NCBI GenBank assembly: GCA_030390025.1
Contig: JASTWF010000324.1
Span: 372,001-436,000, forward strand
Length of the DNA: 64,000 bases
Source: Squalus acanthias
Lineage: Eukaryota
Direction of reading: 5' to 3'
The translations under genes and the position numbers were made by a program. This document shows positions 13,220-50,936 of this stretch, piece by piece. Below the pieces are notes generated by a model, which was given only the letters and a program-made list of their open reading frames with translations, made no database searches and was not told where the DNA came from. Position 1 is the stretch's first letter. Each line of letters begins with the position of its first letter.

Positions 13220-15772
13220 ATAATGGGAAACAAGGAAATGGCAGAGGCATTGAACAAATATTTTGAATCTGCCTTCACAGTAGAAGCCACTAAAAACATC
13301 TCAGTAATAATAGAAAATCAAGGGGCAAAAGGGAGGGAGGAACTTAAAACAATCACTATCACGAGAGAAAAAGTGCTTGGCAAACTTATGGGTCTAAAGG
13401 CTGACAAGTCCCCTGGACCTGATGGCCTGCATCCTAGGATCTTAAAAGAAGTGGCTACAGAGATAGTGGATGCATTGGTTGTAATCTTCCAAAATTCCCT
13501 TGACTCTGGAAAAGTCTCAGCGGATTGGAAAACCGCAAATGTAACGCCCTTATTCAAAAAAGGAGGGAGACAAAAAGCAGGAAACTATAGGTCAGTTAGC
13601 CTAATATCTGTCACTGGGAAAATGCTCGAATCCATTATTAAGGAAGTAGTAGCAGGACATTTAGAGAATCATAATACAATCAAGCAGAGTCAACATAGTT
13701 TTATGAAAGGGAAATCGTGTTTGACAAATTTATTAGGGTTCTTTGAGGAGGTAACGAGCAGGGTGGATCAAGGGGAACCAGTTGATGTAGTGTATTTGGA
13801 TTTCCAAAAGGCATTCGACTAACAGAAAACAGAGAGTCGGGATAAATGGGTATTTTTCAGGATGGCAACCTGTAACTAGTGGGGTGCCACAGGGATCAGT
13901 GCTGGGGCCTCAACTATTTACAATCTATATTAATGACTTGGATGAAGGAAGCGAGTGTACTGTAGCCAAATTTGCTGATGATATCAAGATAGGTGGGAAA
14001 GCAAGTTGTGAGGAGGACATTAAGGGGGAAAAATTCGGTATCGCCCCGTTTGGGGCGCAATTATAGGCCGGGCGCAAAGTTTAGCGCCCAGTGCTAATTA
14101 TCACCTCCGACTGCAAACTTGGCTTCTATCGCCCCTGGAGGTGATTGGAGAGCTAAATCAGGCGCTACACACCTCTGTTAAGGCGCTAACGCCGAGGAGC
14201 GAGGCGCTACCTCAGAGCGCTGGCGAAGCTCATGTGATGTCAGTCAGCAATGGAACACAGACACACTGGCGCCGGCCAGTTCTTAAAGGGGAGGGTCAAT
14301 CTTGCTCTCCATCCACACCCTGCTCATTGCAGCCTTGAATCTCGGCCTGGAGAGACCTGTACATCAATTCTGCTGGAAAGAACAATGGAGAGGCCCAGGG
14401 AAAGAGCTCAGAGTGCAGCCCCCACAGTCTCTTCTAAATCAATACAAGGAAGGGCAAATCAAAATGAACCTGCAAAGTGCTGCTCAGTACCCAAAACTCC
14501 TTCACACAGCGTTGAATCTCTCCAGAAGTCTCTCTCTCTCTCAGAATGCGTGGTGCAAAAATGTCGCCGACAAAAAAAAGGCAGGAAGCGGCTTTAAATA
14601 GCGCTCCCCTAGTCCCTTCCTGACTGCAAAACGCTCCCCTTAACCTGTCGTTGCTAGCGGCAGGCGGTAAGGCAGGGGGCGCCACTCAATATCTGGTCCG
14701 GGGCGCTACCGGGGCGTTGCGCACTCGACTGACGTGACGATCTGCGGGCGCAGGAGATCGTGGCGGTAGTGTTTAGTGCCGCCGCAAAATATCTGGTCAA
14801 TTTCGCGAGTGGCGCAAACATCGCCGCGCACGAGCGCTAGTTGCTTTGGGAGGCGCATAGCAACCGAATTTTCCCCCCAAAGAGTCTGCAAAGGGATAGA
14901 GACAGGTTAAGTGAGTGGGCAATAAGGTGGCAGATGGAGTATAATGTGGGAAAATGTGAGGTTATCCACTTTGGCAGAAAGAATAGAAAAGCAAAATATT
15001 ATTTAAATGGAGAGGGACTACAGAATGCTGAGGTACAGAGGAATCTGGGGGTCCTCGTACATGAAACACAAAAAGTTAGCACACAGGAACAGCAAGTAAT
15101 TAGGAAGGCAAATGGAATGTTGGCCTTTATTTCAAGGGGGATGGAGTATAAGAGTAAGGAAGTCTTGCTACAACTGTACAGGGTGTTGGTGAGACCACAC
15201 CTAGAGTACTGCGTACAGTTTTGGTCTCCTCATTTAAGGAGGGATATACTTGCATTGGAGGCAGTTCAGAGAAGGTTCACTAGGTTGATTCCTGGGATGA
15301 AGGGCTTGTCTTACGGGGAAAGGTTGAGCAGGTTGGGTCTACACTCATTGGAATTTAGAAGAATGAGAGGTGATCTTATTGAAACATATAAGATTCTGAG
15401 AGGGCTTGACAAGGTAGATGCAGAGAGGGTGTTTCCCCTCGTGGGGGAGTCGAGAACTAGAGGGCACAATTTCAGAATAAGGGGTCACCCATTTAAGACA
15501 GAGATGAGGAGGAATTTCTTCTCTCAGAGGGTCGTGAATCTTTGGAATTCTCTACCCCAGAGAGCTGTGGAGGCTGAGTCATTGAATATATTCAAGGCTG
15601 AGATAGACAGATTTTTGAACTACAGGGGAGTTGAGGGTTATGGGGAGCGGGCAGGAAAGTGGAGTTGAGGCCAAGATCAGATCAGCCATGATCTTATTGA
15701 ATGGCGGAGCAGGCTCGAGGGGCCAAATGGCCTACTCCTGCTCCTATTTCTTATGTTCTTATGTTCTTATGT
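13220..15772 (+). mobile_element. 5'-truncated CR1 LINE (RT domain and 3' UTR) with an internal deletion near 13818, interrupted by a MITE at 14024-14877
   Basis: 'KSPGPDGLHPRILKE...YLDFQKAFD', '[20 protein letters not shown]...FADD' and 'SLQRDRDRLSEWA...WNSLP'. Ends in a (ttcttatg)n tail at ~15748-15772. Confidence 0.93.
14024..14877. mobile_element. Non-autonomous DNA transposon (MITE), probably PIF/Harbinger-type
   Basis: Terminal inverted repeats GGGGGAAAAATTCGGT ... ACCGAATTTTCCCCC, with GC-rich subterminal arms. It splits the CR1 RT between 'CEEDIK' and 'SLQRD'. Confidence 0.75.
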
Positions 15773-16028
15773 AACCTGTCTCGCACTTCTCTCTTTTTCT
15801 CTGCTCCTCTCATCTGTCCCTCGCTCGTCCTTTGACGAACCCTCTTGCTGTCACTCCCTCTCTCACTCCCAATCTCCTATTTACTATATCCCTCCTTCTC
15901 TCTGCCTCTGTATCAATTCTGCTCCTTTATACCCCTTCTCTATTGGTCACCTTTTCGGTTTCTCTCTGTTTTCACACTCCCTCTCTCTCTCACACATTGT
16001 CTCTCTCTCTCTGATAGTTGCTCTCTCT

Positions 16029-17003
16029 ATACACTGTCCCATCAAACACTCCCAGGGCAGGTACAGCACGGATTAGATACAGAGTAAAGCTCCCTCTACA
16101 CTGTCCCATCAAACACTCCCAGGGCAGGTACAGCACGGGTTAGATACAGAGTAAAGCTCCCTCTGCACTGTCCCATCAAACACTCCCAGGGCAGGTACAG
16201 CACGAGTTATATACAGAGTAAAGCTCAATCTACACTGTCCCATCAAACACTCCCAGGGCAGAACAGCACGGGTTAGATATAGAGTAAAGCTCCCTCTACA
16301 CTGTCCCATCAAATACTCCCAGGGCAGGTACAGCACGAGTTAGATACAGAGTAAAGCTCAATCTACACTGTCCCATCAAACACTCCCAGGGCAGGTACAG
16401 CACGGGTTAGATACAGAGTAAAGCTCCCTCAACATTGTCCCATCAAACACTCCCAGGGCAGGTACAGCACGGATTAGATACAGAGTAAAGCTCCCTCTAC
16501 ACTGTCCCATCAAATACTCCCAAGGCAGGTACAGCACGGGTTAGATACAGAGTAAATCTCCCTCTACACTGTCCCATCAAACACTCCCAGGGCAGGTACA
16601 GCATGGGTTAGATACAGAGTAAAGCTCCCTCTACACTGTCCCATCAAACACTCCCAGGGCAGGTACAGCACGGATCAGATACAGAGAAAAGCTCCCTCTA
16701 CACTGTCCCATCAAACACTCCCAGGGCAGGTACAGCACGGGTTAGATACAGAGTAAAGCTCCCTCTACACTGTCCCATCAAACACTCCCAGGGCAGGTAC
16801 AGCACGGATTAGTTACAGAGTAAAACTCCCTCTACACTGTCCCATCAAACACTCCCAGGGCAGGTACAGCACGGATTAGTTACAGAGTAAAGCTCCCTCT
16901 ACATTGGCCCATCAAACACTCGCAGGGCGGTACAGCACGGATTAGATACAGAATAAAGCTCCCTCTACACTGTCCCATCAAACACTCCCAGGGCAGGTAC
17001 AGC
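16029..17003 (+). repeat. 67-bp satellite array (~14 units), left flank of the LTR element
   Basis: Same unit as 1014-3811. Ends abruptly at ...ggtacagc|TGTAG. Confidence 0.97.
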
Positions 17004-17575
17004 TGTAGAATTCGCAAAATTATCGCGATTTTATAATAATGAGAAGGAGACAAAAAGTTTCGTACAAACAGCTTTATTTCAGCAGAATGCTGTCAGGTTT
17101 CAAAACGGACACAAACAGCCTGTAAAATGGCCGCCACGCCTCGTGGCAGAATGTTCTAGACTTTCAGTAGGCAGACAAGATGGCGTTTCAATAAACATTT
17201 CAGCAAGATCGGACAGGACTCAGCACATTTGAGATAATGACAAGACGCGATGGGTTTGCATTTCAAACATAAATACTGGAATCGGTTTTCCAGGTACAAA
17301 CGAGGGCTATTGTACTGAGCGATCAAGGACCCATCCAAAGACATTGATATGCAAATTCCCCACGGCTCTACGATGAGAGAGCCGTTCGCGGGTACTCACA
17401 GCAAGCATTTGGAAGCCCCAAAACCCCTCCAGGGAGACTACTAACCGGTTCCACAATGGGAGAAATATTAACGGGTACTCAGACAGTTACAAGTATCACC
17501 GTAACCCATTAAAGACTGAGATCACCCCATACAAGAAGTTTTGAGCGCCAAAACATGACAAAAGATAGACATTAA

Positions 17576-17612
17576 GATTGGGCGGGAAAATAGGAATTAC
17601 AGCACTATAACT
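17576..17612 (+). promoter_or_regulatory. Putative LTR Pol II promoter (ATTGG/GC box and TATA-like element)
   Basis: gattgggcggg lies ~30 bp upstream of ctataa, which is followed ~25 bp later by a pyrimidine-rich start region. Confidence 0.5.
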
Positions 17613-18411
17613 GTAAAGTACAACCGCCCATCTCTCTCTTGCTGCTTTGACTCGCTGGAAGGCTGCTGAACTGCCTGACGACTCTGGACTCTGATCCGCC
17701 AGGATCAACCTCGTGGCTTGCCGCGAAGATCTGTGGAGAACTGGGCTGCGAAGACCTGGAAGTGGGCGCACCATCCCGAGAAGTCGGTAAACGGTGTTGG
17801 AACCGAAGGCCCGAGAGGAGATGAGATGAGATGAGATGAGAAGAGAAGAAGACGACAATACGTATCGCCACGGTCAGTAAACCCCGACTGCGCCTCTAAA
17901 TATAAGGACCATTTCTTCGAATTCTATCGGCTACTCCACAACTGGTGTTGGTCCGAAAAGACTCTTCTTTGAATTTTACCGGCTAACGGGTGCCGGGCAT
18001 AGGAAGACTCTTCTTTGAGTTTTGTCAGAGTTCCGAGGACAACACAGATCTTCATGACAGCAGACGGTCCAGCCTGCTAGCCGGAGCAGAAGCGAGCAAA
18101 CAAGTGGGGTACAGAGACCCCTGATCAACACGTGGATAGTCAGGTGCTGCGGTAAAAACATCCGAGCAGAGTTTCGGAATTCTCCGAGTTATCACGAGTG
18201 GTGAGCATGAGTCTCGATCCTACAAATCTAGATTAGGACAGGTATTGATAGGGGAGGGTTTAAGTTTTAAGGATAATTATAATGTGTGTCCCCTTTTACG
18301 ATGTGTCGTGCGCTCCTCGTTTCCCTAAACCTAGTTGCATAAATGTATGTAAGTTTGTACTGTCATTAATCTGTGCTTATGACATGTATTTCGTAGTCTT
18401 GAATAATATGC

Positions 18412-18417
18412 AATAAA
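18412..18417 (+). terminator. Putative LTR polyadenylation signal
   Basis: AATAAA preceded by a T/GT-rich region and followed by T-rich sequence, inside the LTR. Confidence 0.5.
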
Positions 18418-18573
18418 GATTTTCCATTTCGCACTATTCAACCGGGTCTACCTGAGTTTTCTCTGCATTATTGCTCTCGCACCTAAGTCCAGTGTCAGAA
18501 CCGTAAGGGCAAGTGGGTCGAACCACTCACAGGTGTCTAGTGTTACCAGGCTGGCTGGAGACCAGAACAGGCA

Positions 18574-18905
18574 AACATAGAAACATAGAATCTAGGAACA
18601 GGAGTAGGCCATTCGGCCCGTCGAGCCTGCTCCGCCATTCAATACGATCATGGCTGATCATCCAAATCCAGTACCCTGTCCCTGCTTTAATCCCCACAGT
18701 ACACATATCCCACCCTACCCCCGTAACCCCACGTATTTAATTCCCCCTAACATATCCCCTCCTATCCCCACATATTTAATCCCCCCTAACACGAAGGGTC
18801 AATTTATCATAGCCAAATCAACCTAACCCACACATTTTTGGACTGTGGGAGGAAACCGGAGCACCCGGAGGAAACCCACGCAGACACGGGGAGAATGTGC
18901 AAACA
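18574..18905 (-). mobile_element. HE1-like (V-SINE core and CR1-type tail) SINE fragment inside the LTR
   Basis: 'ggaggaaaccggagcacccggaggaaacccacgcagacacggggagaatgtgcaaac' is the reverse V-SINE core. 'aacatagaaacatagaa...aggccattcggccc...gctccgccattcaat' is the reverse CR1 3' tail (compare 15690-15770). Confidence 0.75.
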
Positions 18906-18967
18906 AGGCCTAACCCCGCACTAGCACCCAGGCTAAGCACAGAGCCACCCGAAACCCCTTACAGATA

Positions 18968-20767
18968 ATGGCGACCACGAAGGGACACTGGCAGCGAGAA
19001 AATAATGTGTTAGACCCTGGTATGAATGTGCAAAATGTTATGGAAGAGAGAATAGCCGATTATGTTTTTGGAAAAGTGAATTTGACTAAGAGATGGATAA
19101 GTGACCTGCTGGTGGATAAGCGTCCACTAGAGGCAGCCGTGAGGTGGACAGGCAGCAAGGAACATAAAAAATCTGTAGAGAAAGCGGTCTGGCTGATGTG
19201 TTATAAAAGGCAAGTCCAGCTTTCGGACCAGGTCATCATAGCGCAGGCAGCTCAGATCAAGGGTTTAGAGGTGGAAATGGACGAGAAGGTCGCAGGGGGG
19301 CAGCAGCTCATCGCGTCTTTAAATGCGTTGCATCAAGAACGCCAGTTAGTCGCCAACCACCATAAGGCGAAAATAGATTACCTCGAGTGCCAGGTCACTG
19401 AGGCAAAATTAAATGAGGGCAGAATAAGGGAGCGATGTGCCCGCCTAGCTGCTCAAATAAAAGCCCAGGAAGAGAGCTTAAAGGGGGTTAGGGCGGCATA
19501 TAAGATGGCCCTCGAGGATAAACATGAGGGGGCCGATCACAGCGTCTGCCAAAGAGAGATAGGGAACCTTAAAGAGGCCCTGAACAAAGCGCACGGCATG
19601 GTGTGCCTTATCAGCCCGTCAGCACACCAGCCGCCGGTGGGTGGGGAATTTCAGAAATCCCCACCGAACAAAGCAGAGGAGGTATTTGCCACTGTGCCCT
19701 CCGCGCCACCCAGCTATTCGGCAACCTGGGTAAGGGAGGAAGTGGTAGAAGTAGAGGAAGAGGTCCCCGAGGTAGGACAGCCCCCTAAAGTAGTAGTGAA
19801 GCCGGGAGCGTTGTGCCCACTTACGGGTATCAAGAGGGGCCCGGAGGGAGACAATGGGGAAGAGGGGAATCTCCTCAACCAGCTTGTGTTGCCTCACAGC
19901 GCACACCAGCTGAGGGCTATGATTAGCCACGTACGGAAGCTGTCCGAGTCAGACGACCCTTCCGTACATTTCAGGGAGGTAGAGCAGACCGCGGCCATTA
20001 ACGGCTGCGACGATGGGGAAAGGGCAAAAATGCTGCTGTTCTCTTTAGACAGCTCGATCCTCCAGTGTCTCTCAGACGTGAGCAAAAGGGGTAATAGGAC
20101 CTATGAGGAGTTAAGAGATGAGGTCCTGGAAGTGTTGGGGGCGGACGACGAAGGTCCGTTTGTGAGATTGGGACAGACTATGCAGATGGAGGGAGAACCC
20201 CAGAAGGTTTTCGCCGACAGGCTGTGGCCTGTCTATCAGCGTAGTTGCCCAGGCGCGCCCGAGCGCGTTGATTTAGACGCCGTTGGTTTAGCTCACTGGC
20301 TCAGATGTATAGTAGCCAACAGCTTACCAGCCGTGAGGGAGCAGGCCAAAGCGTGGTTTGATCCCATTAACCCCGCCACAACAGAGGAGTCGGTCCTAAA
20401 TCGACTCACGGTAGGGTACCGTAATACCAGGAGTACGGGGGCACGTCCCCTTAAGGGTAAGGTGCATGAGGCGCGGCCCACAGCCCCGGCTCAAAAGGAG
20501 CGGCATCAGGAGGGAAATCGCGTCCCACAAGCCAGTAATGCTTGTTTCGGATGCGGAAAAACAGGGCACTGGCGCAAGAACTGCAGGAATCCTTGGAAGG
20601 AGTCCAGGGATAAAAATCCCGCAGTCCGAGCCCAGGCGCCTGTCTCCGATAGGGGAGCTGGTGCACCTATCCATCCCGATGCGATCGAATCAATGTTAGG
20701 AGCCATGCGGTCTCTCATGATTTTGCACGGGAAGGTAGCAACAGCCCCATGCAACCCGGACTTCTGA
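18968..20767 (+). CDS. gag: Gag polyprotein (599 aa)
   Basis: Uninterrupted ORF. N-terminal coiled coil, PSAPPSY late domain (19697-19717), capsid-like 'HFREVEQTAAINGCDDGERAKMLLFSL', and CX2CX4HX4C knuckle CFGCGKTGHWRKNC (20543-20584). Confidence 0.9.
   Translation: MATTKGHWQRENNVLDPGMNVQNVMEERIADYVFGKVNLTKRWISDLLVDKRPLEAAVRWTGSKEHKKSVEKAVWLMCYKRQVQLSDQVIIAQAAQIKGLEVEMDEKVAGGQQLIASLNALHQERQLVANHHKAKIDYLECQVTEAKLNEGRIRERCARLAAQIKAQEESLKGVRAAYKMALEDKHEGADHSVCQREIGNLKEALNKAHGMVCLISPSAHQPPVGGEFQKSPPNKAEEVFATVPSAPPSYSATWVREEVVEVEEEVPEVGQPPKVVVKPGALCPLTGIKRGPEGDNGEEGNLLNQLVLPHSAHQLRAMISHVRKLSESDDPSVHFREVEQTAAINGCDDGERAKMLLFSLDSSILQCLSDVSKRGNRTYEELRDEVLEVLGADDEGPFVRLGQTMQMEGEPQKVFADRLWPVYQRSCPGAPERVDLDAVGLAHWLRCIVANSLPAVREQAKAWFDPINPATTEESVLNRLTVGYRNTRSTGARPLKGKVHEARPTAPAQKERHQEGNRVPQASNACFGCGKTGHWRKNCRNPWKESRDKNPAVRAQAPVSDRGAGAPIHPDAIESMLGAMRSLMILHGKVATAPCNPDF
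18969..18986 (+). promoter_or_regulatory. Primer-binding site, tRNA-Arg(UCG)-type
   Basis: TGGCGACCACGAAGGGAC is the reverse complement of GTCCCTTCGTGGTCGCCA, which I recall as the 3' end of vertebrate tRNA-Arg(TCG) plus CCA. It lies directly after the LTR end. Confidence 0.85.
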
Positions 20768-21871
20768 CTGGAACCGGCACAGCCCGCCTACCTGTGTCCC
20801 CTAGAAAGACGCGCACAGGAGGGGGTCTCCTGTAAGGAGGCCAGGTTGAAAGAGCAGGCCTTGCAGGAGGAGAACGCCCGCTTAATAGGGAAAGTAGACG
20901 AGCTGGAAGGGCAGCTTAGAGAGCAGGCCCTGCGGGAGGAGAACGCCCACTTAATGGGGAAAGTAGATGGGCTAGAAGGGCAGCTTAGAGAGATAAAAGC
21001 AGCCTACAGGGTAGCCAGAAGCAGGGATTTAAATCAGTGCAAACTGTATAAGCCGGGTGCGCAAGGGCCAACCACAGGGGCCAAACCTGCGAGTGGGGAC
21101 TCGCAGCCCCGGGTAGGGCCACAGGACACACAGGCAGGCAAAGCAGCTTGCATCAGGGGAGAGGACATCCTGGCGAAATGCAGGATCCTTTATTGGGGTT
21201 GGGAGTCAGATGAGGAAGAGTTCGAGGAGCTCGACCAAGATAGTGACACAAGCGAAGAGGAGCTGGAATCGGAGGACGAAAGGGTCGCCCCCGATTCAGG
21301 TATAGGGTAGATAGGGACTGCAGATGGAGATCCACACAGGGTGGAGACAGAAGCTGCAGGTCCCGAGATCAGGGGGGCGGAGCTAGGGGAGGCGGGGCCA
21401 GCGGCTGTGGTGGGACCACAGGACGTGGCAATGGAAGCCTCAGAACCCAGTCCGTCCGCCTTGGAAGTCTTGCCCTCGAGGGAGGTAGGGATTGCGAGTG
21501 AAGGGCCGCCGACTGGGCCAAGTAGGGCGGTGCCAAAGGCTGCAGATCCCGAGTTCAGGGAGGCGGAGTCAGGGGAGGCGGAGCCAGCGACTGTGGTGGG
21601 ACCACAGGTCGCCACGGTGGAAGTCTCGAAACCCGGTCTGTCGGTCCTGGAGTTCCTGCCCCCGGTAGTTCCCCGTAGGTCAAGTCGGACACCCCAGCCT
21701 AGGAAGATGTGGGTAAGCCCCCAGAGTGTCCCAAGGCGTAGGTTCAAGGCTAAGGCAGCCCAGGGAGATCCCAGTCCCAGCGCAGCAGCGACAAGCTGCG
21801 GCAGATCAAAGGAAGGGGTCAGTGCCCCCCCACCGTTGGGAAAAGCTTGTGGCCGCCTTCACAGAATTTGA
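20768..21871 (+). CDS. ORF X: in-frame continuation of gag (coiled-coil repeat, acidic tract, 62-aa repeat, Arg/Pro-rich tail), with one internal TAG at 21308-21310
   Basis: Track ORFs 20846..21310 and 21341..21871 are both in the gag frame. The linkers 20768-20845 and 21311-21340 contain no stops. Confidence 0.6.
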
Positions 21872-22147
21872 GTAGGCCGCCCTGGGAACGGGCGGCGCTG
21901 TACAGTTATAAGATAAGTGATAAGTTTTATAGTTTATAAGTTTTAAGTTTGAAGTTTGATAGTTAAAATTTTAATAAGGAAAATGGTAAAATGATGGGAG
22001 TTAGAGATAGGAATAGTTAAAGTCTATCCAGTGCACATGTCTTCTTACGTGAGGCGAGGTCAGGGGACCCGCTCACCCTTCACAAAAGCCAGAGACTCTT
22101 GGGAGGCTGGCTACCTCATTCTATCTGATCACAGGAACCAAGGAAGG

Positions 22148-23899
22148 ATGGAACGGATTCTGGTAGTGCTCGCGGCAATCGGATGTGGACTGGCCTATCG
22201 AGGCCGCACAAAGGATGTCGTGGTGTTTGGATGCTCCGGGGACACGGCCCCCATCGCGGTGGATGGGACCGGAAGGCGAGAGGCTGAGGAGACCGCCACT
22301 TATTTCCACAAAGGAAGGTGGCCAGGATGGCTGGGAACGAATTCAACTGAATATTCCTGTACATCGGGATTTGCCTACAAAGAGACTTCTTTAATGTGCC
22401 CCAAAGTGAGGATCATCGCACCCAGAGTGCCATTGAGCCGATGGTGGTGGCTACGAAAGCTGAGCAAAAACATGAGGAACTCTTCGGTCGAGTGGGAGCG
22501 ACTGGGTAATAATACGCATCGGACAATTACGGGGACTAACGGACAATTGAGAGTCTGTTGGGACAAATGGTGGGAACCGGATGAGGAAATCTATGTATGT
22601 ATGTGGGGGTCAAAGCACATTTGCCCCAAAGGCATCTCCATATTTTTCATCAATCAGTGGCAGGATAATGGGAAAGGGATGAGGTGGGATGCAAGCACCA
22701 GGGGGTGCGGGGCCCCATACTCTCCAATCCCGGTAAACGCCACTGAACTCATTACGCGCCCACGCAAGGCCCCGCCCACAATTCTGGTGGTTCTAGCTAA
22801 GGAAGAAGGGTGCCCTAAAACCAGGAAGGGACCCGGAAATGGTTTGGTACTGGTCCCTACAGACCAGCTACTATTTCAGGGGGTACATTACGCGGTGGCC
22901 TCGGTGATTTTAAACCTCACCGAGGTGCGGTTGCCGGAGTGGTGCCCCAAAGAGACGGAACAGTTATATCACGTCCTGTTGACCAAGATGTTTAGGCAAT
23001 TTTATGAGTTCGATTTCGCGGAAATTGATAAAACAAGTTTGTACACCGCACCACATGAAGTTTTGGGTCAGGTGGGGAGACAAAGAAGGGATGTTGTGAA
23101 CGACATGTTCACTGCTTTCAATGCAGGTACATCTGTGGTCAACGCTCTAGACAGCGTGGAGCTGCAGACCCAGATTAATGGCTTAAAAACACAATTGAAG
23201 AACATTCTCACAGATGAAAATAAGGTGGTTGGGTCTGGGTTACATGAGGACGAGGCCATGACGCTACACTTAAAGGAAATTATAGCAGAGCTGGAGAAGC
23301 ATGCGAGAACGGTAAATGCCCTGATTAGGGAAGATCGGAATGCATCCGATCAAGCTGCGCAGAATGAGGTGTGCGTGCTTTACGGGGCGTGGTTACTGTG
23401 CGAGGGCCGCAGTAATTTGGAGGATTTAAAACAAGGTTTGGTCCCTTCCTGGATAAGTAACAAACATCTGCAGGCGATCCACCCTTTTCAGAACGCATTA
23501 AGCCCGTGCCAGCTCAAGCTAGCTTCAGAAGCATACCCAATCCCCGTGGACTGCGGACGGTCAAATCATACCATTATGGGTGTAGTTTTACGTATGCCGG
23601 TTTTGGGTGACACAGCAAAGCCCGCCCCGGTGTATCGGGTAGAGAACATTGGTGTCATTCAGGGGGGAGCCCACATTCGCTATGCAACGGTTCCACCTTA
23701 CGTCATCCGCTGGGAGCAAACGATGACAGGTACAGATCTCTCTGGTTGTCGTGGCAGGGGAGCACACATAATCCTGTGTCCCCAGCACTTGAATGCCTTT
23801 TTATCACCACAGTGCGGGTTCAGAACGGCTGGCGCCAAGCCCATGAATTGCAACATGGAGGCAATGGCACAAGATCGGGTTAGATACAGCACGGGTTAG
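22148..23899 (+). CDS. env: Envelope/fusion glycoprotein, C-terminally truncated
   Basis: ATG 22148 follows a splice-acceptor-like ctgatcacAG (22133-22134). Signal peptide MERILVVLAAIGCGLA, several NxS/T sequons, furin site RQRR (23078-23089), fusion-peptide-like segment, heptad repeat and Cys-rich region. No TM helix; the stop codon is supplied by the satellite. Confidence 0.82.
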   Translation: MERILVVLAAIGCGLAYRGRTKDVVVFGCSGDTAPIAVDGTGRREAEETATYFHKGRWPGWLGTNSTEYSCTSGFAYKETSLMCPKVRIIAPRVPLSRWWWLRKLSKNMRNSSVEWERLGNNTHRTITGTNGQLRVCWDKWWEPDEEIYVCMWGSKHICPKGISIFFINQWQDNGKGMRWDASTRGCGAPYSPIPVNATELITRPRKAPPTILVVLAKEEGCPKTRKGPGNGLVLVPTDQLLFQGVHYAVASVILNLTEVRLPEWCPKETEQLYHVLLTKMFRQFYEFDFAEIDKTSLYTAPHEVLGQVGRQRRDVVNDMFTAFNAGTSVVNALDSVELQTQINGLKTQLKNILTDENKVVGSGLHEDEAMTLHLKEIIAELEKHARTVNALIREDRNASDQAAQNEVCVLYGAWLLCEGRSNLEDLKQGLVPSWISNKHLQAIHPFQNALSPCQLKLASEAYPIPVDCGRSNHTIMGVVLRMPVLGDTAKPAPVYRVENIGVIQGGAHIRYATVPPYVIRWEQTMTGTDLSGCRGRGAHIILCPQHLNAFLSPQCGFRTAGAKPMNCNMEAMAQDRVRYSTG

Positions 23900-26800
23900 A
23901 TACAGAGTAATGCTACCTCTACACCGTCCCATCAAACACTCCCAGGGCAGGTACAGCACGGGTTAGATACAGAGTAAAGCTCCCTCTACACTGTCCCATC
24001 AAACACTCCCAGGGCAGGTACAGCACGGGTTAGATACAGAGTAAAGCTCCCTCTACACTGTCCCATCAAACACTCCCAGGGCAGGTATAGCACGTGTTAG
24101 ATACAGAGGAAAACTCCCTCTACACTGTCCCATCAAACACTCCCAGGGCAGGTACAGCACGGGGTTAGATACAGAGTAAAGCTCCCTCTACACTGTCCCA
24201 TCAAACACTCCCAGGGCAGGTACAGCACGGGGAAGATACAGAGTAAAGCTCCCTCTACACTGTCCTATCAAACACTCCCAGGGCAGGTACAGCACGGGGT
24301 TGCATACAGAGGAAAGCTCCCTCTACACTGTCCCATCAAACACTCCCAGGGCAGGTACAGCACGGGGTTAGATACAGAGTAAAGCTCCCTCTACACTGTC
24401 CCATAAAACACTCCCAGGGCAGGTACAGTACAGGGTTAGGTACAGAGTAATGCTACCTCTACACCGTCACATCAAACACTCCCAGGACAGGTACAGCACG
24501 GGTTAGATACAGAGTAAAGCTCCCTCTACACTGTCCCATCAAACACTCCCAGGGCAGGTGCAGCACGGGTTAGATACAGAGTAAAGCTCCCTCTACACTG
24601 TCGCATCAGACACTCCCAGGGCAGGTACAGCAAGGGATCGATACAGAGTAAAGCTCCCTCTACACTGTCCCATCAAACACTCCCAGGGCAGGTACAGCAC
24701 AGGTTAGATTCAGAGTAAAGCTCCCACTACACTGTCCCATCAAACACTCCCAGGGCAGGTACAGCACGGGGTAGATACAGAGTAAAGATCCCTTAACACT
24801 GTCCCATCAAGCACTCCCAGGGCAGGTACAGCACAGGTTAGATACAGAGTAAAGCTCCCTCTACACTGTCCCATCAAACACTCCCAGGTCAGGTACAGCA
24901 CGGGGTAGATACAGAGGAAAGCTCACTCTACACTGTCCCATCAAACACTCCCAGGCCAGGTACAGCACGGGTTAGATACAGAGTAAAGCTCCCTCTACAC
25001 TGTCCCATCAAACACTCCCAGGGCAGGTACAGCACGGGTTAGATACAGAGTAAAGCTCCCTCTACACTGTCCCATCAAACACTCCCAGGGCAGTTACAGC
25101 ACGGGTTAGATACAGAGTAAAACTCCCTCTACACTGTCCCATCAAACACTCCCAGGGCAGGTACAGCACAGGTTAGATACAGAGTAAAGCTCCCTCTACA
25201 CTGTTCCAACAAACACCCCCAGGGCAGATACAGCACGGGTTAGATACAGAGCAAAGCTCCCTCTACACTGTCCCCATCAAATACTCCCAGGGCAGGTACA
25301 GCACGGGTTAGATACAGAGTAAAGCTCCCTCTACACTGTCCCATCAAACACTCCCAGGGCAGGTACAGCACGGGTTAGATACAGAGTAAAGCTCCCTCTA
25401 CACTGTCCCATCAAACACTCCCAGGGCAGGTACAGCACGGGGAAGATACAGAGTAAAGCTCCCTCTACACTGTCCCATGAAACACTCCCAGGACAGGTAC
25501 AGCACGGGACAGATACAGAGTAAAGCTCCCTCTACACTGTCCCATCAAACACTCCCAGGGCAGGTACAGCACAGGTTAGATAAAGAGTAAAGCTACCTCT
25601 ACACTTTCCCATCAAACGCTCCCAGGGCAGGTACAGCACGGGGTTAGATACAGAGTAATGCTACCTCTACACCGTCCCATCAAACACTCCCAGGACAGGT
25701 ACAGCACGGGTTAGATACAGAGTAAAGCTCCCTCTACACTGTCCCATCAAACACTCCCAGGGCAGGTACAGCACGGGTTAGATACAGAGTAAAGCTCCCT
25801 CTACACTGTCCCATCAAACACTCCCAGGGCAGGTATAGCACGTGTTAGATACAGAGGAAAACTCCCTCTACACTGTCCCATCAAACACTCCCAGGGCAGG
25901 TACAGCACGGGGTTAGATACAGAGTAAAGCTCCCTCTACACTGTCCCATCAAACACTCCCAGGGCAGTTACAGCACGGGTTAGATACAGAGTAAAACTCC
26001 CTCTACACTGTCCCATCAAACACTCCCAGGGCAGGTACAGCACAGGTTAGATACAGAGTAAAGCTCCCTCTACACTGTTCCAACAAACACCCCCAGGGCA
26101 GATACAGCACGGGTTAGATACAGAGCAAAGCTCCCTCTACACTGTCCCCATCAAATACTCCCAGGGCAGGTACAGCACGGGTTAGATACAGAGTAAAGCT
26201 CCCTCTACACTGTCCCATCAAACACTCCCAGGGCAGGTACAGCACGGGGAAGATACAGAGTAAAGCTCCCTCTACACTGTCCCATGAAACACTCCCAGGA
26301 CAGGTACAGCACGGGACAGATACAGAGTAAAGCTCCCTCTACACTGTCCCATCAAACACTCCCAGGGCAGGTACAGCACAGGTTAGATAAAGAGTAAAGC
26401 TACCTCTACACTTTCCCATCAAACGCTCCCAGGGCAGGTACAGCACGGGGTTAGATACAGAGTAATGCTACCTCTACACCGTCCCATCAAACACTCCCAG
26501 GACAGGTACAGCACGGGTTAGATACAGATTAAAGCTCCCTCTACACTGTCCCATCAAACAAACCCAGGGCAGGTACAGCACGGGGTTAGATACAGAGTAA
26601 AGCTCCGTCTACACTGTCCCGTCAAACACTCCCAGGGCAGGTACAGCACGGGTTAGATACAGAGTAAAGCTCCCTCTACACTGTCGCATCAAACACTCCC
26701 AGGGCAGGTACAGCACGGGATAGATACAGAGTAAAACTCCCTCTACTCTGTCCCATCAAACACTCCCAGGGCAGGTACAGCACGGGTTAGATACAGAGTA

Positions 26801-27780
26801 AAGCTCCCTCTACACTGTCCCAACAAACACTCCCAGGGCAGGTACAGCACGGGTTAGATACAGAGTAAAGGTCCCTCTACACTGTCCCATCAAAAACTCC
26901 CAGGGCAGGTACAGCACGGGTTAGATACAGAGTAAAACTCCCTCTACACTGTCCCATCAAACACTCCCAGGCCAGGTACAGCACAGGTTAGATACAGAGT
27001 AAAGCTCCCTCTACACTGTCCCATCAAACACTCCCAGGGCAGGTACAGCACGGGTTAGATACAGCGTAAAGCTCCCTCTACACTGTCCCCATCAAACACT
27101 CCCAAGGCAGGTACAACACGCGTTAGATACATAGTAAAGCTCCCTCTACACTGTCCCATCAAACACTCCCAGGGCAGGTACAGCACGGGTGAGATACAGA
27201 GTAAAGGTCCCTCTACACTGTCCCATCAAACACTCCCAGGGCAGGTACAGCACGGGTTAGATACAGAGTAAAACTCCCTCTACACTGTCCCATCAAACTC
27301 TCCCAGGGCAGGTACAGCACGGGTATGATGCAGAGTATAGCCCCCTCTACACTGTCCCATCAAACACTCCCAGGCCAGGTACAGCACGGGTTAGATACAG
27401 AGGAAAGCTCCCTCTACACTGTCCCATCAAACACTCCCAGGGCAGGTACAGCACGGGGTTAGATACAGAGTAAAGCTCCCTCTACACTGTCCCATCAAAC
27501 ACTCCCAGGGCAGGTACATCACGGCATTATATACAGAGTAAAGCTCCCTCTACACTGTCCCATCAAACACTCCCAGGGCAGGTACAGCACGGGGTTAGAT
27601 ACAGAGTAAAGCTCCCTCTACACTGTCCCATCAAACACTCCCAGGGCAGGTGCAGCACGGGTTAGATACAGAGTAAAGCTCCCTCTACACTGTCCCATCA
27701 AACACTCCCAGGGCAGGTACAGCACGGGTTAGAGACAGAGTAAAGCTCCCTCTACACTGTCCCATCAAACACTCGCAGGG
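23877..27780 (+). repeat. 67-bp satellite array (~58 units)
   Basis: Same unit as 1014-3811, fused directly to the truncated env. Confidence 0.97.
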
Positions 27781-27783
27781 GAG

Positions 27784-28138: not shown

Positions 28139-29640
28139 GTGTATGTTTGTGTGTTGGTGTATGTGTGAGTGTGTCTGTGTCTGAGTATGCACATGTGTTT
28201 GTGTGTCTATGTGTATCTGTGTTTGTATATGTCTGCGTTGGTGTGTGTTTGTGTGAGTATGCGAGTGTGTGTGAGTGTGTGTGAGTGTGTGAGAGTGCGT
28301 TTGAAGTGTGCGAGTGTGAGTGTGTGAGTGTGTGTGAGTGTGCGAGTCTGTGTGAGTGTGTGAATGCATGAGTGTGTGAGAGTGTGAGAGTGCATTTGAG
28401 TGTGCGAGTGTGTGAGTGTGTGTGAGTGTGTGTTTGAGTGTGTGAGTGTGTGTTACTCTGTGTGAGTGTGAGTGAGTGTGAGTGTGTGAGTGTGATTGTG
28501 TGTTAATGTGTGTGTGAGTGTGTGTTAATGTGTGTGTGTGAGTGTGTGAGTGTGTGTTAGTGTATGTGTGAGTGTGTGTGTGTGAGTGTGATTGTGTGTG
28601 TGTGTGTGAGTGTGTGATTGTGTGTGTGTGAGAGTGATTGTGTGTGTAAGTGTGAGTTTGTGTGTGAGTGTGAGTGTGTGAGTGTGAGTGTGTGTTAGTG
28701 TATGTGTGAGTAAGTGTGAGTGTATGTGCATGTGTGTGAGAGTGAGTGAGTGTGTGTGAGTGTGAGTGTGTGAGTGTGAGTGTGTGAGTGTGTGTGAGTG
28801 AGTGTGTGTGAGTGAGTTTGATTGTGAGTGTGTGAGTGTGCGTGAGTGTATGAGTGTGTGTGAGTGTGAGTATGTGAGTGTGAGTGAGTGTGTGAGTGTG
28901 AGTACGTGAGTGTGCGACTGTGAGTGTGTGAGCGTGAGTTTCTGTGTATGTGTGAGTGTGTGTTAATGTGTGTGTGTGAGTGTGTGAGTATGAGTGTGTG
29001 TTAGTGCATGTGCGAGTGAGTGTGAGTGTGTGAGTGTATGACTGTGTGTGAGTGTCAGTGTGGGTGTGTGAGTGTGAATGTGTGAATGTGTGTGTGTGAG
29101 TGTGGGTGAGGGTGTGTGCATGTGTGTAAGTGTGTGTGAGTGTGTGTTTGTGAGTTTGTGAGTGTGAGTGAGTGTGTGTGAGTGTGAGTTTGTGAGTTTG
29201 AGTATGAGTGTGTGAGTGTGAGTGAGTGTGAGTGTGTGTGTGTGAGTGTGTGTGTGAGAGTGCGTGTGTGAGTGTGTGTGTGTGAGTGAGTGTGTGTGAG
29301 AGTGTGTGAGTGAGTGTGTGTGTGAGTGAGTGTGTGAGTGTGTGATTTTGAATGTGTGTGTGAGTGTGAGAGAGTGTATGAGTGTGTGTGAGTTTGAGTG
29401 TGTGTGGGTGAGTGTGAGTTTGTGAGTTTGAGTATGAGTGTGTGAGTGTGAGTGAGTGTGAGTGTGTGTGTGAGTGTGAGTTTGTGAGTTTGAGTATGAG
29501 TGTGTGAGTGTGAGTGAGTGTTTGAGTGTGTGAGTTTGAGTGTGAGTATGTGAGTGTGAGTGAGTGTGAGTTTGAGTGTGAGTGTGAGTGTGTGAGTGTG
29601 AGTGAGTGTGTGAGTTTGTGAGTTTGAGTGTGAGTGAGTG
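28139..29640. repeat. (TG/AG)n low-complexity tract running into the gap
   Basis: G/T/A dinucleotide mosaic. Reverse complement of ~61089-62475. Confidence 0.95.
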
Positions 29641-30140
29641 NNNNNNNNNNNNNNNNNNNNNNNNNNNNNNNNNNNNNNNNNNNNNNNNNNNNNNNNNNNN
29701 NNNNNNNNNNNNNNNNNNNNNNNNNNNNNNNNNNNNNNNNNNNNNNNNNNNNNNNNNNNNNNNNNNNNNNNNNNNNNNNNNNNNNNNNNNNNNNNNNNNN
29801 NNNNNNNNNNNNNNNNNNNNNNNNNNNNNNNNNNNNNNNNNNNNNNNNNNNNNNNNNNNNNNNNNNNNNNNNNNNNNNNNNNNNNNNNNNNNNNNNNNNN
29901 NNNNNNNNNNNNNNNNNNNNNNNNNNNNNNNNNNNNNNNNNNNNNNNNNNNNNNNNNNNNNNNNNNNNNNNNNNNNNNNNNNNNNNNNNNNNNNNNNNNN
30001 NNNNNNNNNNNNNNNNNNNNNNNNNNNNNNNNNNNNNNNNNNNNNNNNNNNNNNNNNNNNNNNNNNNNNNNNNNNNNNNNNNNNNNNNNNNNNNNNNNNN
30101 NNNNNNNNNNNNNNNNNNNNNNNNNNNNNNNNNNNNNNNN
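29641..30140. other. Assembly gap (500 N)
   Basis: Run of N. Confidence 1.
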
Positions 30141-48963: not shown

Positions 48964-50113
48964 AGGAACTGTACCCCAGGGAGAGTCTGGAACTGTACCC
49001 CAGGGAGAGTCAGCACCTTCAGGAACTGTACCCCAGTGAGAGTCAGCACCTTCAGGGTCTGTACCCCAGGGAGAGTCAGCACCTTCAGGAACTGTACCCC
49101 AGGGAGAGTCAGCACCTTCAGGGTCTGTACCCCAGGGAGAGTCAGCATCTTCAGGAACTGTACCCCAGAGAGAGTCAGCACCTTCAGGAACTGTACCCCA
49201 GTGAGAGTCAGCACCTTCAGGAACTGTACCCCAGGGAGAGTCAGCACCTTCAGGAACTGTACCCCAGGGAGAGTCAGCACCTTCAGGAACTGTACCCCAG
49301 AGAGAGTCAGCACCTTCAGGAACTGTACCCCAGGGAGAGTCAGCATCTTCAGGAACTGTACCCCAGTGAGAGTCAGCACCTTCCGGAACTGTACCCCAGT
49401 GAGAGTCAGCATCTTCAGGAACTGTACCCCAGTGAGAGTCAGCACCTTCAGGAACTGTACCCCAGTGAGAGTCAGCACCTTCAGGAACTGTACCCCAGTG
49501 AGAGTCAGCATCTTCAGGAACTGTACCCCAGTGAGAGTCAGCACCTTCAGGAACTGTACCCCAGTGAGAGTCAGCACCTTCAGGAACTGTACCCCAGTGA
49601 GAGTCAGCACCTTCAGGAACTGTACCCCAGTGAGAGTCAGCACCTTCAGGAACTGTACCCCAGGGAGAGTCAGCACCTTCAGGAACTGTACCCCAGGGAG
49701 AGTCAGCACCTTCAGGAACTGTACCCCAGTGAGAGTCAGCACCTTAAGGAACTGTACCCCAGAGAGAGTCAGCACCTTCAGGAACTGTACCCCAGTGAGA
49801 GTCAGCATCTTCAGGAACTGTACCCCAGTGAGAGTCAGCACCTTCAGGAACTGTACCCCAGTGAGAGTCAGCACCTTCAGGGTCTGTACCCCAGTGAGTG
49901 TCAGCACCTTCAGGAACTGTACCCCAGGGAGAGTCAGCACCTTCAGGAACTGTACCCCAGGGAGAGTCAGCGCCTTCAGGAACTGTACCCCAGGGAGAGT
50001 CAGCACCTTCAGGAACTGTACCCCAGGGAGAGTCAGCACCTTCAGGGTCTGTACCCCAGGGAGAGTCAGCACCCTCAGGAACTGTACCCCAGGGAGAGTC
50101 AGCACCTTCAGGA
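48964..50113 (+). repeat. 33-bp minisatellite (~34 units)
   Basis: Unit aggaactgtaccccagtgagagtcagcaccttc. Confidence 0.95.
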
Positions 50114-50936
50114 CAAGACAGGATGAAGTCTGGAAAAAATACAAAAGTTAATTCCCTTGAGATTGGAAGGGAACTTTATGGGGGATGACCAGCAGTGTGG
50201 GCAGTTAGACTCTCCCAGCCAGCGTCCTGCACTGAATGTGGTCTCTCTCCCATCCCGACCCACAGACTGATATCTGCCCGCAGTCACTGGCAACAAGATG
50301 TCAGCATTTCAGGAGATGCCTAGTTAAGCAGCAGATGTTAGCGTATATCTGACTGAGTTGTTAAATTAAATCGAGTTTATTGAATTATAATGAGATTGGG
50401 GCCAAGCCTTGCAGCCGATGCTAGTCATTGTCTGTGGGCGGGGTATTGCAAGCACCTGGTACAAAGCATGGAACAGTGTTGTTGACACACTGCTCCCCAC
50501 ACAATCTCCAAATGCAAACATATGCTGCTGTTGATGTGAAAAGACCTTTCTGTGTAGCTCAGGGTCTTGTTTAGTTTGCACTCCGGGGACAGGTTGGGGT
50601 CAAGTGGCTTGTAGCATCAGCACAATTCCCTTGGAGAGGAAAATCAACGGGACACTTGAGCGGAAGAAAAGGCTTATTGAGACTCTCAATAAATTCTGTG
50701 CTGCCTCCTGCCCCAGCCCTGCTCTTCATCAACATTCATCAGCTGGCCTGCTCTTCAGTTCCTTTTTAAATAAATAATATTTATTTGTATGGAGTGGGTT
50801 TTGCTGCCCGCCCCCCACCACCCCAGGCTCAAGCTGGCGTACAGTTCCAGGGACCCCCTCCAGTGCCTTCACCAAACCACAGCAAGATATTCAACTGTGG
50901 GAGGATCACAGCTGAACCAGTTGCTGTCCTCAGCAG

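Follow-up and report, generated by a model that had tools for sequence, protein, structure and literature searches.

A truncated pol-less endogenous retrovirus in the Squalus acanthias genome, probably a non-autonomous derivative copied with the enzymes of its pol-containing siblings

The window analysed here, a 64,000-nt stretch of the Squalus acanthias genome (assembly GCA_030390025.1, contig JASTWF010000324.1, region 372001-436000), contains a retrovirus-like element in which gag and env open reading frames (ORFs, under the standard code) follow a long terminal repeat (LTR) with no pol enzymes encoded between them (Table 1). Comparison with other copies in the 3.7-Gb genome indicates that the locus most probably holds a truncated, inactive member of a high-copy group of non-autonomous elements, which derive from a young endogenous retrovirus (ERV) and are copied with the enzymes of their pol-containing siblings. 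The derivative would have arisen by the in-frame replacement of ~3.6 kb encoding protease (PR), reverse transcriptase (RT), RNase H and integrase (IN) with a 230-nt filler, and keeps both LTRs, the primer-binding site (PBS), gag with its TGA stop, 11 protease codons, a ~280-aa Pol tail, env and the polypurine tract (PPT). Dispersed copies share this layout, carry 4-bp target-site duplications (TSDs) of the integrase type and near-identical LTR pairs, and coexist with pol-containing siblings in similar numbers; their gag and env genes are under purifying selection, and the pol-less and pol-containing forms are interleaved in gag. That the partner's enzymes mobilised the derivative is inferred from its TSDs, its young LTR pairs and the signs of recombination.

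A dispersed family with pol-containing siblings

Thirty gag loci, the window copy and 29 others, were sampled from thousands of copies. Nineteen of the 29 are co-linear with the window through the gag-env interval, and the other ten stop matching at window position 20740. Within this group of ten, nine loci carry a protease (LLDTGAS) in frame after the gag stop and eight a reverse transcriptase (YVDDLL); the tenth, L016 (G000:C8:123926261-123931029), has an LTR directly after gag, where the pol-containing and pol-less forms differ, and may be a nested insertion or a further deletion type. A gag DNA probe returned 3409 first-look candidates, a 251-nt probe across the pol-less junction 1573 and an RT probe of equal length 1269; the 40 matches scored for each probe have identities of 93-100%, 90-100% and 99-100%, respectively, with the junction matches spread over many contigs. 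The junction and RT candidates sum to approximately the gag count, and the pol-less layout is found on many contigs and chromosome-scale scaffolds. With 1573 junction candidates and 19 of the 29 other loci lacking pol, the suggestion of the initial annotation that the layout belongs to a family and is not a one-off deletion is borne out; the circumstance that it named as fatal to this suggestion, a full pol in all other copies, does not obtain.

The pol-containing siblings share LTR ends, PBS and gag (94-97% identity) with the pol-less copies. One of them, the C8 copy (L031+L032), spans 13.5 kb and agrees with the window copy in its PBS and LTR ends; its 1599-nt LTRs are 99.06% identical to each other, and its TSD is AATC. 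Its Pfam matches comprise RVP, RVT_1, RT_RNaseH_2, RNase_H, Integrase_H2C2, rve and a weak SH3_Tf2-1, and its pol is broken. The window 5' LTR matches both LTRs of the C8 copy (93%), as well as the LTRs of a pol-less copy, C4, described below. A candidate for the pol-containing helper that had been envisaged, with the same LTR ends and PBS, is present, but it is the element's own full-length sibling and not a separate group. The C8 copy also holds a private insertion of ~0.9 kb between env and the 3' LTR (positions 11516-12425 of L031+L032), a repeat that is also found, inverted, at window 14017-14848.

Composition of the gag-env interval

The interval between gag and env had been described as a short, enzyme-free gap of 1.4 kb; it is short and free of enzyme domains, but measures 1269 nt. 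Past the TGA, the gag frame reads on through 367 codons of the interval, with a single internal TAG at 21308-21310 in the window copy. Alignment with the pol-containing copies divides this frame into the start of protease, the filler and the 3' end of the pol ORF (Table 1). The Pol tail of the window copy is 81% identical in amino acid sequence to that of the C8 copy (tblastn; the alignment includes 25 filler residues) and holds an internal 141-nt repeat (21338-21478 and 21524-21664), while the weak Pfam match to SH3_Tf2-1 in the C8 copy lies just upstream of the 3' breakpoint. When the PR-RT, RNase H and IN pieces of the C8 copy were compared with the window by tblastn, only the post-integrase tail matched, and Pfam searches returned nothing for the two interval ORFs or the env-like ORF.

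The filler takes the place of 3616 nt of the C8 copy, in frame after allowing for a frameshift private to that copy; its product is coiled-coil-like and contains a tandem repeat of 23 aa (69-70 nt). It is carried by 19/19 other pol-less loci and by 40/40 scored genome matches, with one, two or more repeat units, and was found by neither blastn nor tblastn in the 16-kb pol-containing C8 locus. A tblastn match between the filler and the gag coiled coil (36% over 47 aa, E=0.004 in a 16-kb search space) is too weak and was not relied on. In other pol-less copies, the frame, here called X, is a single open frame of 339-428 aa whose length depends on how many repeat units are present; among 20 pol-less loci, 11 have it open as far as its normal end. 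Searches with the X protein found no homologue of similar length, and none for residues 1-95 among longer proteins.

Roughly three quarters of X is the preserved 3' end of the pol ORF, to which the first 11 protease codons are added, and only the 230-nt filler lacks a match in pol; the interval forms an in-frame Gag-stop-delta-Pol arrangement, not a foreign gene that has replaced pol. The initial annotation had taken it for a mostly open stretch unlike pol: its openness stands, as one frame continuous with gag and interrupted by one stop, but its unlikeness to pol does not, and the unusual ORF envisaged in place of pol resolves into a protease start, the filler and the Pol tail. The outcome for degraded pol domains, whose presence in the interval had been named as a point against the annotation, is similarly divided, with no enzyme domain detected by Pfam or tblastn and a post-integrase Pol tail present.

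Integration of pol-less copies

The expected ends were fetched for ten pol-less copies, yielding the 5' LTR start in nine and the 3' LTR end within 601 nt in three. Two of the three copies with both ends have perfect 4-bp TSDs (CCGC and GAAG), and in the third, three of the four positions match (TGGG/CGGG). In the pol-less C4 provirus (L037+L010+L038, G000:C4:81118850-81130550), which is 9.2 kb long, gag, X and env are open frames of 599, 347 and 820 aa, respectively; its two LTRs are 99.5% identical, the PBS is retained, and a purine-rich tract precedes the 3' LTR. Paired LTRs and TSDs, which had been proposed as a check on the family, are thus both present in pol-less copies. The letters that follow the C4 3' LTR, GATA, are the same as those between U5 and the PBS, and suggest an unprocessed end or exchange between proviruses.

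Selection and recombination

Pairwise ratios of nonsynonymous to synonymous divergence (dN/dS) are similar for gag in the two forms, with a median of 0.24 among pol-less copies (28 pairs) and 0.25 among pol-containing copies (6 pairs). The env genes of three pol-less copies give ratios of 0.15, 0.16 and 0.18 in their three pairs, and X has a median of 0.54 (10 pairs, range 0.47-0.90). In a gag clade whose sampled members are all pol-less, the six pairs range from 0.20 to 0.34, each with p<=4e-5 against neutrality. These ratios, from the comparison between copies that had been recommended, indicate that gag and env of the pol-less copies are under purifying selection and that X is much less constrained than either gene. 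Synonymous divergence (dS) among copies is ~0.10-0.15, against 0.5% divergence between the LTRs of C4, the sole pol-less provirus compared; because the former greatly exceeds the latter, most of the differences would have arisen while the lineage replicated.

On a gag tree of 20 pol-less and 9 pol-containing rows, built from unaltered gag without L016, the pol label changes seven times, and well-supported branches force at least five of these changes. The approximately unbiased (AU) test rejects monophyly of the pol-less copies on this tree (difference in log-likelihood 220.5, p=1.5e-47), and a tree of LTR plus gag, in which L016 was counted as pol-containing, has the same outcome, with the two forms interleaved. 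Since all pol-less copies examined carry the identical complex replacement, a single origin is the economical reading, and a single origin together with an interleaved gag tree implies repeated exchange of LTR-gag sequence between the pol-less and pol-containing forms. Template switching between co-packaged RNAs, the usual route of retroviral recombination, is most likely the means of this exchange.

Gag and readthrough of its stop codon

The 599-aa Gag contains PSAP/PPSY at aa 244-250, PTAP at aa 504 and one CCHC knuckle (C-X2-C-X4-H-X4-C) at aa 526-539. The knuckle is the source of the only Pfam match (zf-CCHC, E=0.0035, short of the Pfam cutoff) and of the only sequence matches to the PDB, which are nucleocapsid knuckles (E>=0.012). 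The AlphaFold2 model from the single sequence averages a pLDDT of 41, inadequate for fold searching, and its sole confident part is an N-terminal coiled coil at aa 106-183. The nearest Atlas clusters are retrotransposon Gag families (0.92), which serves as a lead only. Of the 20 pol-less loci, 10 have an open gag frame, as do 4 of the 9 pol-containing loci.

The gag stop is a TGA at 20765-20767, and because pro-pol lies in frame behind this single codon, the parent virus would make Gag-Pro-Pol by readthrough. UGA-CUAG is a readthrough context; the UGA is followed by CUAG in the pol-containing copies and in the C4 copy, and by CUGG in the window copy.

Proposed mode of replication and alternative explanations

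In the proposed mode of replication, genomic RNA of the pol-less form would be packaged, reverse-transcribed and integrated with the PR, RT and IN supplied by Gag-Pol of a pol-containing sibling in the same cell, while the derivative's own Gag and F-type Env would contribute to the particles. The parent would make Gag-Pro-Pol through the TGA and the derivative a Gag-X fusion by the same route. Co-packaging of both RNAs would lead to frequent template-switch recombination and in this way to the interleaved gag tree. The window copy itself is capable of none of these steps.

Several points weigh against this account. It is drawn from DNA and not from RNA or protein, and the copy numbers come from first-look candidates instead of a census. 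Both ends were recovered for only 3 of the 10 probed copies, and the C4 provirus has no TSD, with AGAG on one flank and GATA on the other. The dN/dS values are pairwise Nei-Gojobori estimates from open-frame copies only; the all-pol-less clade may hold pol-containing members that were not sampled, with 30 of thousands of copies included, and the selection seen in gag and env could be imported from pol-containing lineages through recombination. Gene conversion between genomic copies could mimic recombination after co-packaging. The argument for readthrough consists of the in-frame arrangement and the UGA-CUAG context, and RNA folds of the 86 nt beginning at the stop do not exceed shuffled sequence in stability (z -0.4 to -1.3), giving no sign of a stimulatory RNA structure.

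A possible but doubtful alternative is that the pol-less lineage is a satellite retrovirus, an adapted and long-lived parasite of the pol-containing virus that depends on its own Gag and Env, with a Gag-X protein selected for a function such as entering particles, competing with the Gag-Pol of the helper, or using the Pol tail to tether to chromatin. Its own capsid protein and F-type fusogen would then be selected, Gag-X would stand where Gag-Pol stood, only the enzymes would be borrowed, recombination would proceed through co-packaging, and some 10^3 copies would at least equal those of the helper; we think it rather unlikely that this picture holds in full. Purifying selection on gag and env in pol-less copies, including the clade that is pol-less-only in the sample, is in keeping with such a lineage, although selected sequence of both genes can also enter by recombination with pol-containing copies. 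There are no fewer junction candidates than RT candidates, and a dS far above the LTR-pair divergence of the one provirus points to long replication as a lineage. The evidence from X is mixed: the deletion is in frame, more than half of the loci are open to the normal end and dN/dS is below 1, but the constraint is much weaker than on gag and env, and the 55% of loci with X intact, over 1.1 kb, do not surpass what gag would predict, at 50% over 1.8 kb, which gives no sign of special preservation after insertion. X also has no homologue or domain detectable in the searches described above, and the pol 3' end may persist only for env splicing signals.

The preferred account, mobilisation in trans with recombination in virions, would survive in its first part if the interleaving had come about by gene conversion or ectopic recombination between integrated copies instead of co-packaging. 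This is improbable in our view. Thousands of copies that are 90-99% identical would lend themselves to it, and the missing TSD of the C4 provirus is what recombination between proviruses would leave, but two of the three pol-less copies with both ends have perfect TSDs, and gag is under strong purifying selection, as expected for variation that arises in replication.

Recurrent generation of pol-less copies from pol-containing genomes, by splicing or by deletion at an RT hotspot, would produce interleaving on the tree without recombination and without a pol-less lineage of its own, and GT does follow the 5' breakpoint in the pol-containing sequence. The same 230-nt filler is nevertheless present in all pol-less copies examined and missing from the 16-kb pol-containing locus, and a complex replacement is unlikely to recur identically, making this origin very improbable. 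Splicing as the origin of the pol deletion was rejected because the shared sequence at this deletion's 3' breakpoint already starts before the nearest AG is reached. Finally, a provirus rearranged once only, or an error of assembly within a satellite array, has next to no chance of explaining the locus: the window copy is truncated, lies in a 67-nt satellite and has an inverted twin with the same flank and truncation, but the layout occurs on many contigs and scaffolds with TSDs, and only the truncation and a short interspersed nuclear element (SINE) are private to the locus or the pair, so that this explanation is refuted for the layout and true for the truncation.

Envelope protein and lineage

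The full-length Env of the C4 copy, at 820 aa, has a subunit of ~450 aa with a membrane anchor after a furin-type RQRR site. In the window Env, this site lies at aa 348-351 (23078-23089) and is followed by an F-like fusion subunit; a signal-like segment starts at aa 38, and there are seven N-glycosylation sequons. A HMMER search of 1.84 billion representative proteins found 36 relatives at E<=1e-3. Ten of these were looked up, of which eight are from sharks (Mustelus, Chiloscyllium, Heterodontus, Scyliorhinus and the sawshark Pristiophorus) and one from a coelacanth; the closest named relatives are from skate and sawshark, at 67-72% identity. These relatives by themselves would point to a cartilaginous fish as the host. 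No Pfam family was found in any of 11 relatives scanned (E<=0.1), and PF00523 has no match in Env at E<=1.

An AlphaFold2 model built from a 29-sequence alignment is confident only for residues 260-614. Foldseek returned 94 PDB matches to this model at E<=1e-3, and every listed row is a paramyxovirus or pneumovirus F protein, the best being that of human parainfluenza virus 3 (E=7e-9), with TM-scores of 0.25-0.40. An all-against-all structure alignment (VIA) placed seven F proteins and the foamy virus prefusion Env in the top eight, with Z scores of 8.0-9.8 over 220-272 aligned residues, which by the tool's own note is only just above background; the foamy virus Env scored 8.2. Together with the furin-type site and the anchored subunit, these model comparisons suggest that Env is an F-type class I fusogen, so that the initial description of it as F-protein-like is supported at the level of fold. 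The RT is closest among solved structures to foamy virus PR-RT (E=9e-47), followed by the RT of murine leukemia virus and xenotropic murine leukemia virus-related virus (3e-39), Ty3 (5e-29) and human immunodeficiency virus (~1e-14).

Foamy viruses express Pol apart from Gag, and their Gag is not known to have a Cys-His knuckle. The family resembles them in the predicted fold of Env, matched to their prefusion Env, in having foamy virus RT as its closest match and in the N-terminal coiled coil of Gag, but differs in that pro-pol lies in frame directly behind the gag TGA and in that Gag has a CCHC knuckle. It thus stands outside the spumaretrovirus-like ERVs, for which a separate Pol and a Gag without a knuckle are the criteria. 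Its likeness to lokiretroviruses lies in the predicted paramyxovirus F-type fold of Env and in the N-terminal coiled coil of Gag. Lokiretroviruses are also characterised by an RT that branches as sister to those of all other retroviruses. Sequence similarity of Env to PF00523 is, however, a hallmark of lokiretroviruses in the main text of their description, which gives a match at 2.2e-7, whereas the Env described here has none at E<=1; sharks and Chondrichthyes do not occur in that main text (PMC7947760).

Pieces of this Env appear in the gene models of several chondrichthyan genomes, as an 'uncharacterized protein' or within chimeras. Two proteins, P0004 and P0008, have Env pieces fused to host genes ('Niban 1-like' and a C2H2 zinc-finger protein), and are probably annotation chimeras.

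None of the listed sequencing runs that contain this stretch is recorded as RNA. Four runs, only guessed to be RNA and hence not evidence of transcription, contain contigs that cover the filler (for example, 20805-21017), and their word depth is several-fold higher over env from ~22045. Contigs of two of these guessed-RNA runs, X7 and X15, have in common an 11-letter loose end just before 22045, the letters of which are absent from the window. Position 22045, 8 nt inside the annotated env ORF, could be the env splice acceptor, and in that case Env would start at the methionine of aa 38 (22148). Runs of other organisms hold 7-29% of the sampled words of 20500-21300, which is no evidence for host range.

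Relationship to known non-autonomous retroviruses

Non-autonomous derivatives of ERVs are known; what distinguishes this family is that gag and env are both constrained as strongly as in the helper, along with the preserved in-frame Gag-delta-Pol frame, an abundance that rivals the helper's, and a clear signal of recombination between the pol-less and pol-containing forms. ETn/MusD, IAP I-delta-1, HERV-H (RTVL-H) and ENS-3 are internally deleted elements that share LTRs with an autonomous partner and rival or outnumber it, and derivatives of the ETn/MusD type usually lose env, with their remaining genes under relaxed constraint. Compared with these elements and with ENS-1, the present family has kept both gag and env under constraint. 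The complex of Friend spleen focus-forming virus and Friend murine leukemia virus includes a pol-deleted genome with gag- and env-derived genes that is packaged by the helper and recombines with it; such complexes are exogenous and belong to the laboratory or to disease, whereas the family described here is germline and has thousands of copies. In the dN/dS framework of Belshaw and colleagues, trans-complemented ERVs are said to be expected to lose constraint on their own genes.

EAV-HP is an alpharetrovirus-related, low-copy bird element. The chicken EAV-HP proviruses resemble the present family as ERV proviruses that lack the whole of pol and retain gag and env sequence, but differ in that parts of gag and env are missing as well from the published insertion (PMC3554524). 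Neither an in-frame Gag-delta-Pol ORF nor purifying selection is known from EAV-HP. BHIKHARI (Bik-1 and Bik-2) comprises non-autonomous endogenous lokiretroviruses of zebrafish with gag only, in a report that also names ENS-1 as a non-autonomous variant (bioRxiv 10.1101/2024.03.25.586437). By that description, BHIKHARI is likewise a recently active, multi-copy fish LTR element without pol, with a Gag of ~600 aa (617 in Bik-1) and an N-terminal coiled coil. This likeness is one of description only, and BHIKHARI has no env, while the family here has env, a Pol tail, a gag-pol readthrough frame and a CCHC knuckle in Gag. No description of the pol-less family was found in a non-exhaustive search of the literature that did not cover supplementary files.

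A pol-less family with helper-level constraint on gag and env, together with recombination, offers a natural setting in which to examine how small a retrovirus genome can become and still spread as a particle-forming parasite of another retrovirus. The family also adds an unannotated lineage of F-type Env, which bears on the link between the fusogens of lokiretroviruses, foamy viruses and paramyxoviruses.

The window copy and its flanks

The features read initially from the window were confirmed: the element has an LTR and a PBS-like 18-mer, its gag is open over 599 aa, its env is open as far as the truncation, and PR, RT, RNase H and IN are lacking. The ends of the window LTR were fixed with the paired LTRs of other copies as reference. 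In the window copy, the PBS-like 18-mer and the gag ATG (18968) overlap, and there is therefore no leader between PBS and gag. The 18-mer is identical in pol-containing and pol-less copies, and may be a tRNA-Arg PBS; a genome pattern for the corresponding tRNA 3' end gave 16 hits, and 0 of 9 inspected proved to be a tRNA (ARAGORN; three also by Rfam). ARAGORN found no tRNA within the window, and a repeat search of window 14-34 kb returned only a microsatellite-like array at ~28.3 kb, with the LTRs not detected in that way.

Table 1. Positions of the element's features and of the flanking satellite within the window.
Feature	Position (nt)	Strand	Remarks
67-nt satellite array, 5' flank	15873-17003		BLAST ladder at 67-nt spacing; junction ...GGTACAGC / TGTAGAATTC
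5' LTR (TGTAG...CTTACA)	17004-18963	+	LTR of ~1633 nt with a SINE inside
SINE, catagaaacatagaatc... type	18575-18901	+	327 nt; inside the 5' LTR, GCAAA on either side
gag ORF	18968-20767	+	599 aa; from ORF listing
PBS-like 18-mer TGGCGACCACGAAGGGAC	18969-18986	+	starts with TGG; 5-nt spacer after LTR end
Protease start remnant (LEPAQPAYLCP)	20768-20799	+	first 11 codons; from 5' breakpoint alignment; common to pol-containing copies
Filler	20800-21029	+	230 nt; replaces ~3.6 kb of PR-RT-RNase H-IN
First interval ORF	20954-21310	+	118 aa; from ORF listing
pol ORF 3' end	21030-21871	+	last integrase SH3-like residues and acidic, proline-rich, basic Pol tail of ~280 aa
Second interval ORF	21431-21871	+	146 aa; from ORF listing
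env-like ORF	22037-23899	+	620 aa; from ORF listing
env, truncated	22037-23876	+	first 614 of ~820 aa
67-nt satellite array, 3' flank	23882-27783		occupies the place of the env 3' end, PPT and 3' LTR

By BLAST and the junction sequence, env ends at ~23876, where the 67-nt satellite starts, and contigs of the guessed-RNA runs have loose ends at 23876. The window copy is thus missing the last ~206 Env residues, which include the second heptad repeat, the membrane anchor and the tail, and has neither PPT nor 3' LTR. An inverted twin (L033, G000:C2495:450807-457395) lies 55 kb from the window copy, is 99.2-99.5% identical to it, and has the same upstream satellite flank and env truncation, so that the element must have been truncated before a segmental duplication produced the pair. 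The SINE is private to the window copy, being missing from 29/29 other loci including this twin, and was therefore inserted after the duplication; its presence in the LTR is a sign of recent SINE activity in the genome. The satellite phase is nearly continuous across both junctions (...GGTACAGC, element, GGGTTAGATACAG...), an odd arrangement if a provirus had first inserted and then lost its 3' part.

The window copy is dead: a SINE interrupts its LTR, X contains a stop, and both the env C-terminus and the 3' LTR are missing. The proposal that it is both young and potentially active fails on its truncated env, the missing PPT and 3' LTR, the SINE and its standing as one half of a segmental duplication, and its open gag and open env fragment reflect youth, not activity.

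Other features of the window

Upstream of the element, window 14934-15668 contains a 244-aa ORF (MEYNVGKCEVIHFGRKNRKA...), which in our judgement presumably resembles the C-terminal part of a non-LTR retrotransposon reverse transcriptase. A repeat array with an 8-14-nt period and a GC skew of +0.8 occupies window 28261-29900, and a 12-kb stretch at window 50000-62000 has a GC skew of ~-0.96, with almost no G on the + strand.

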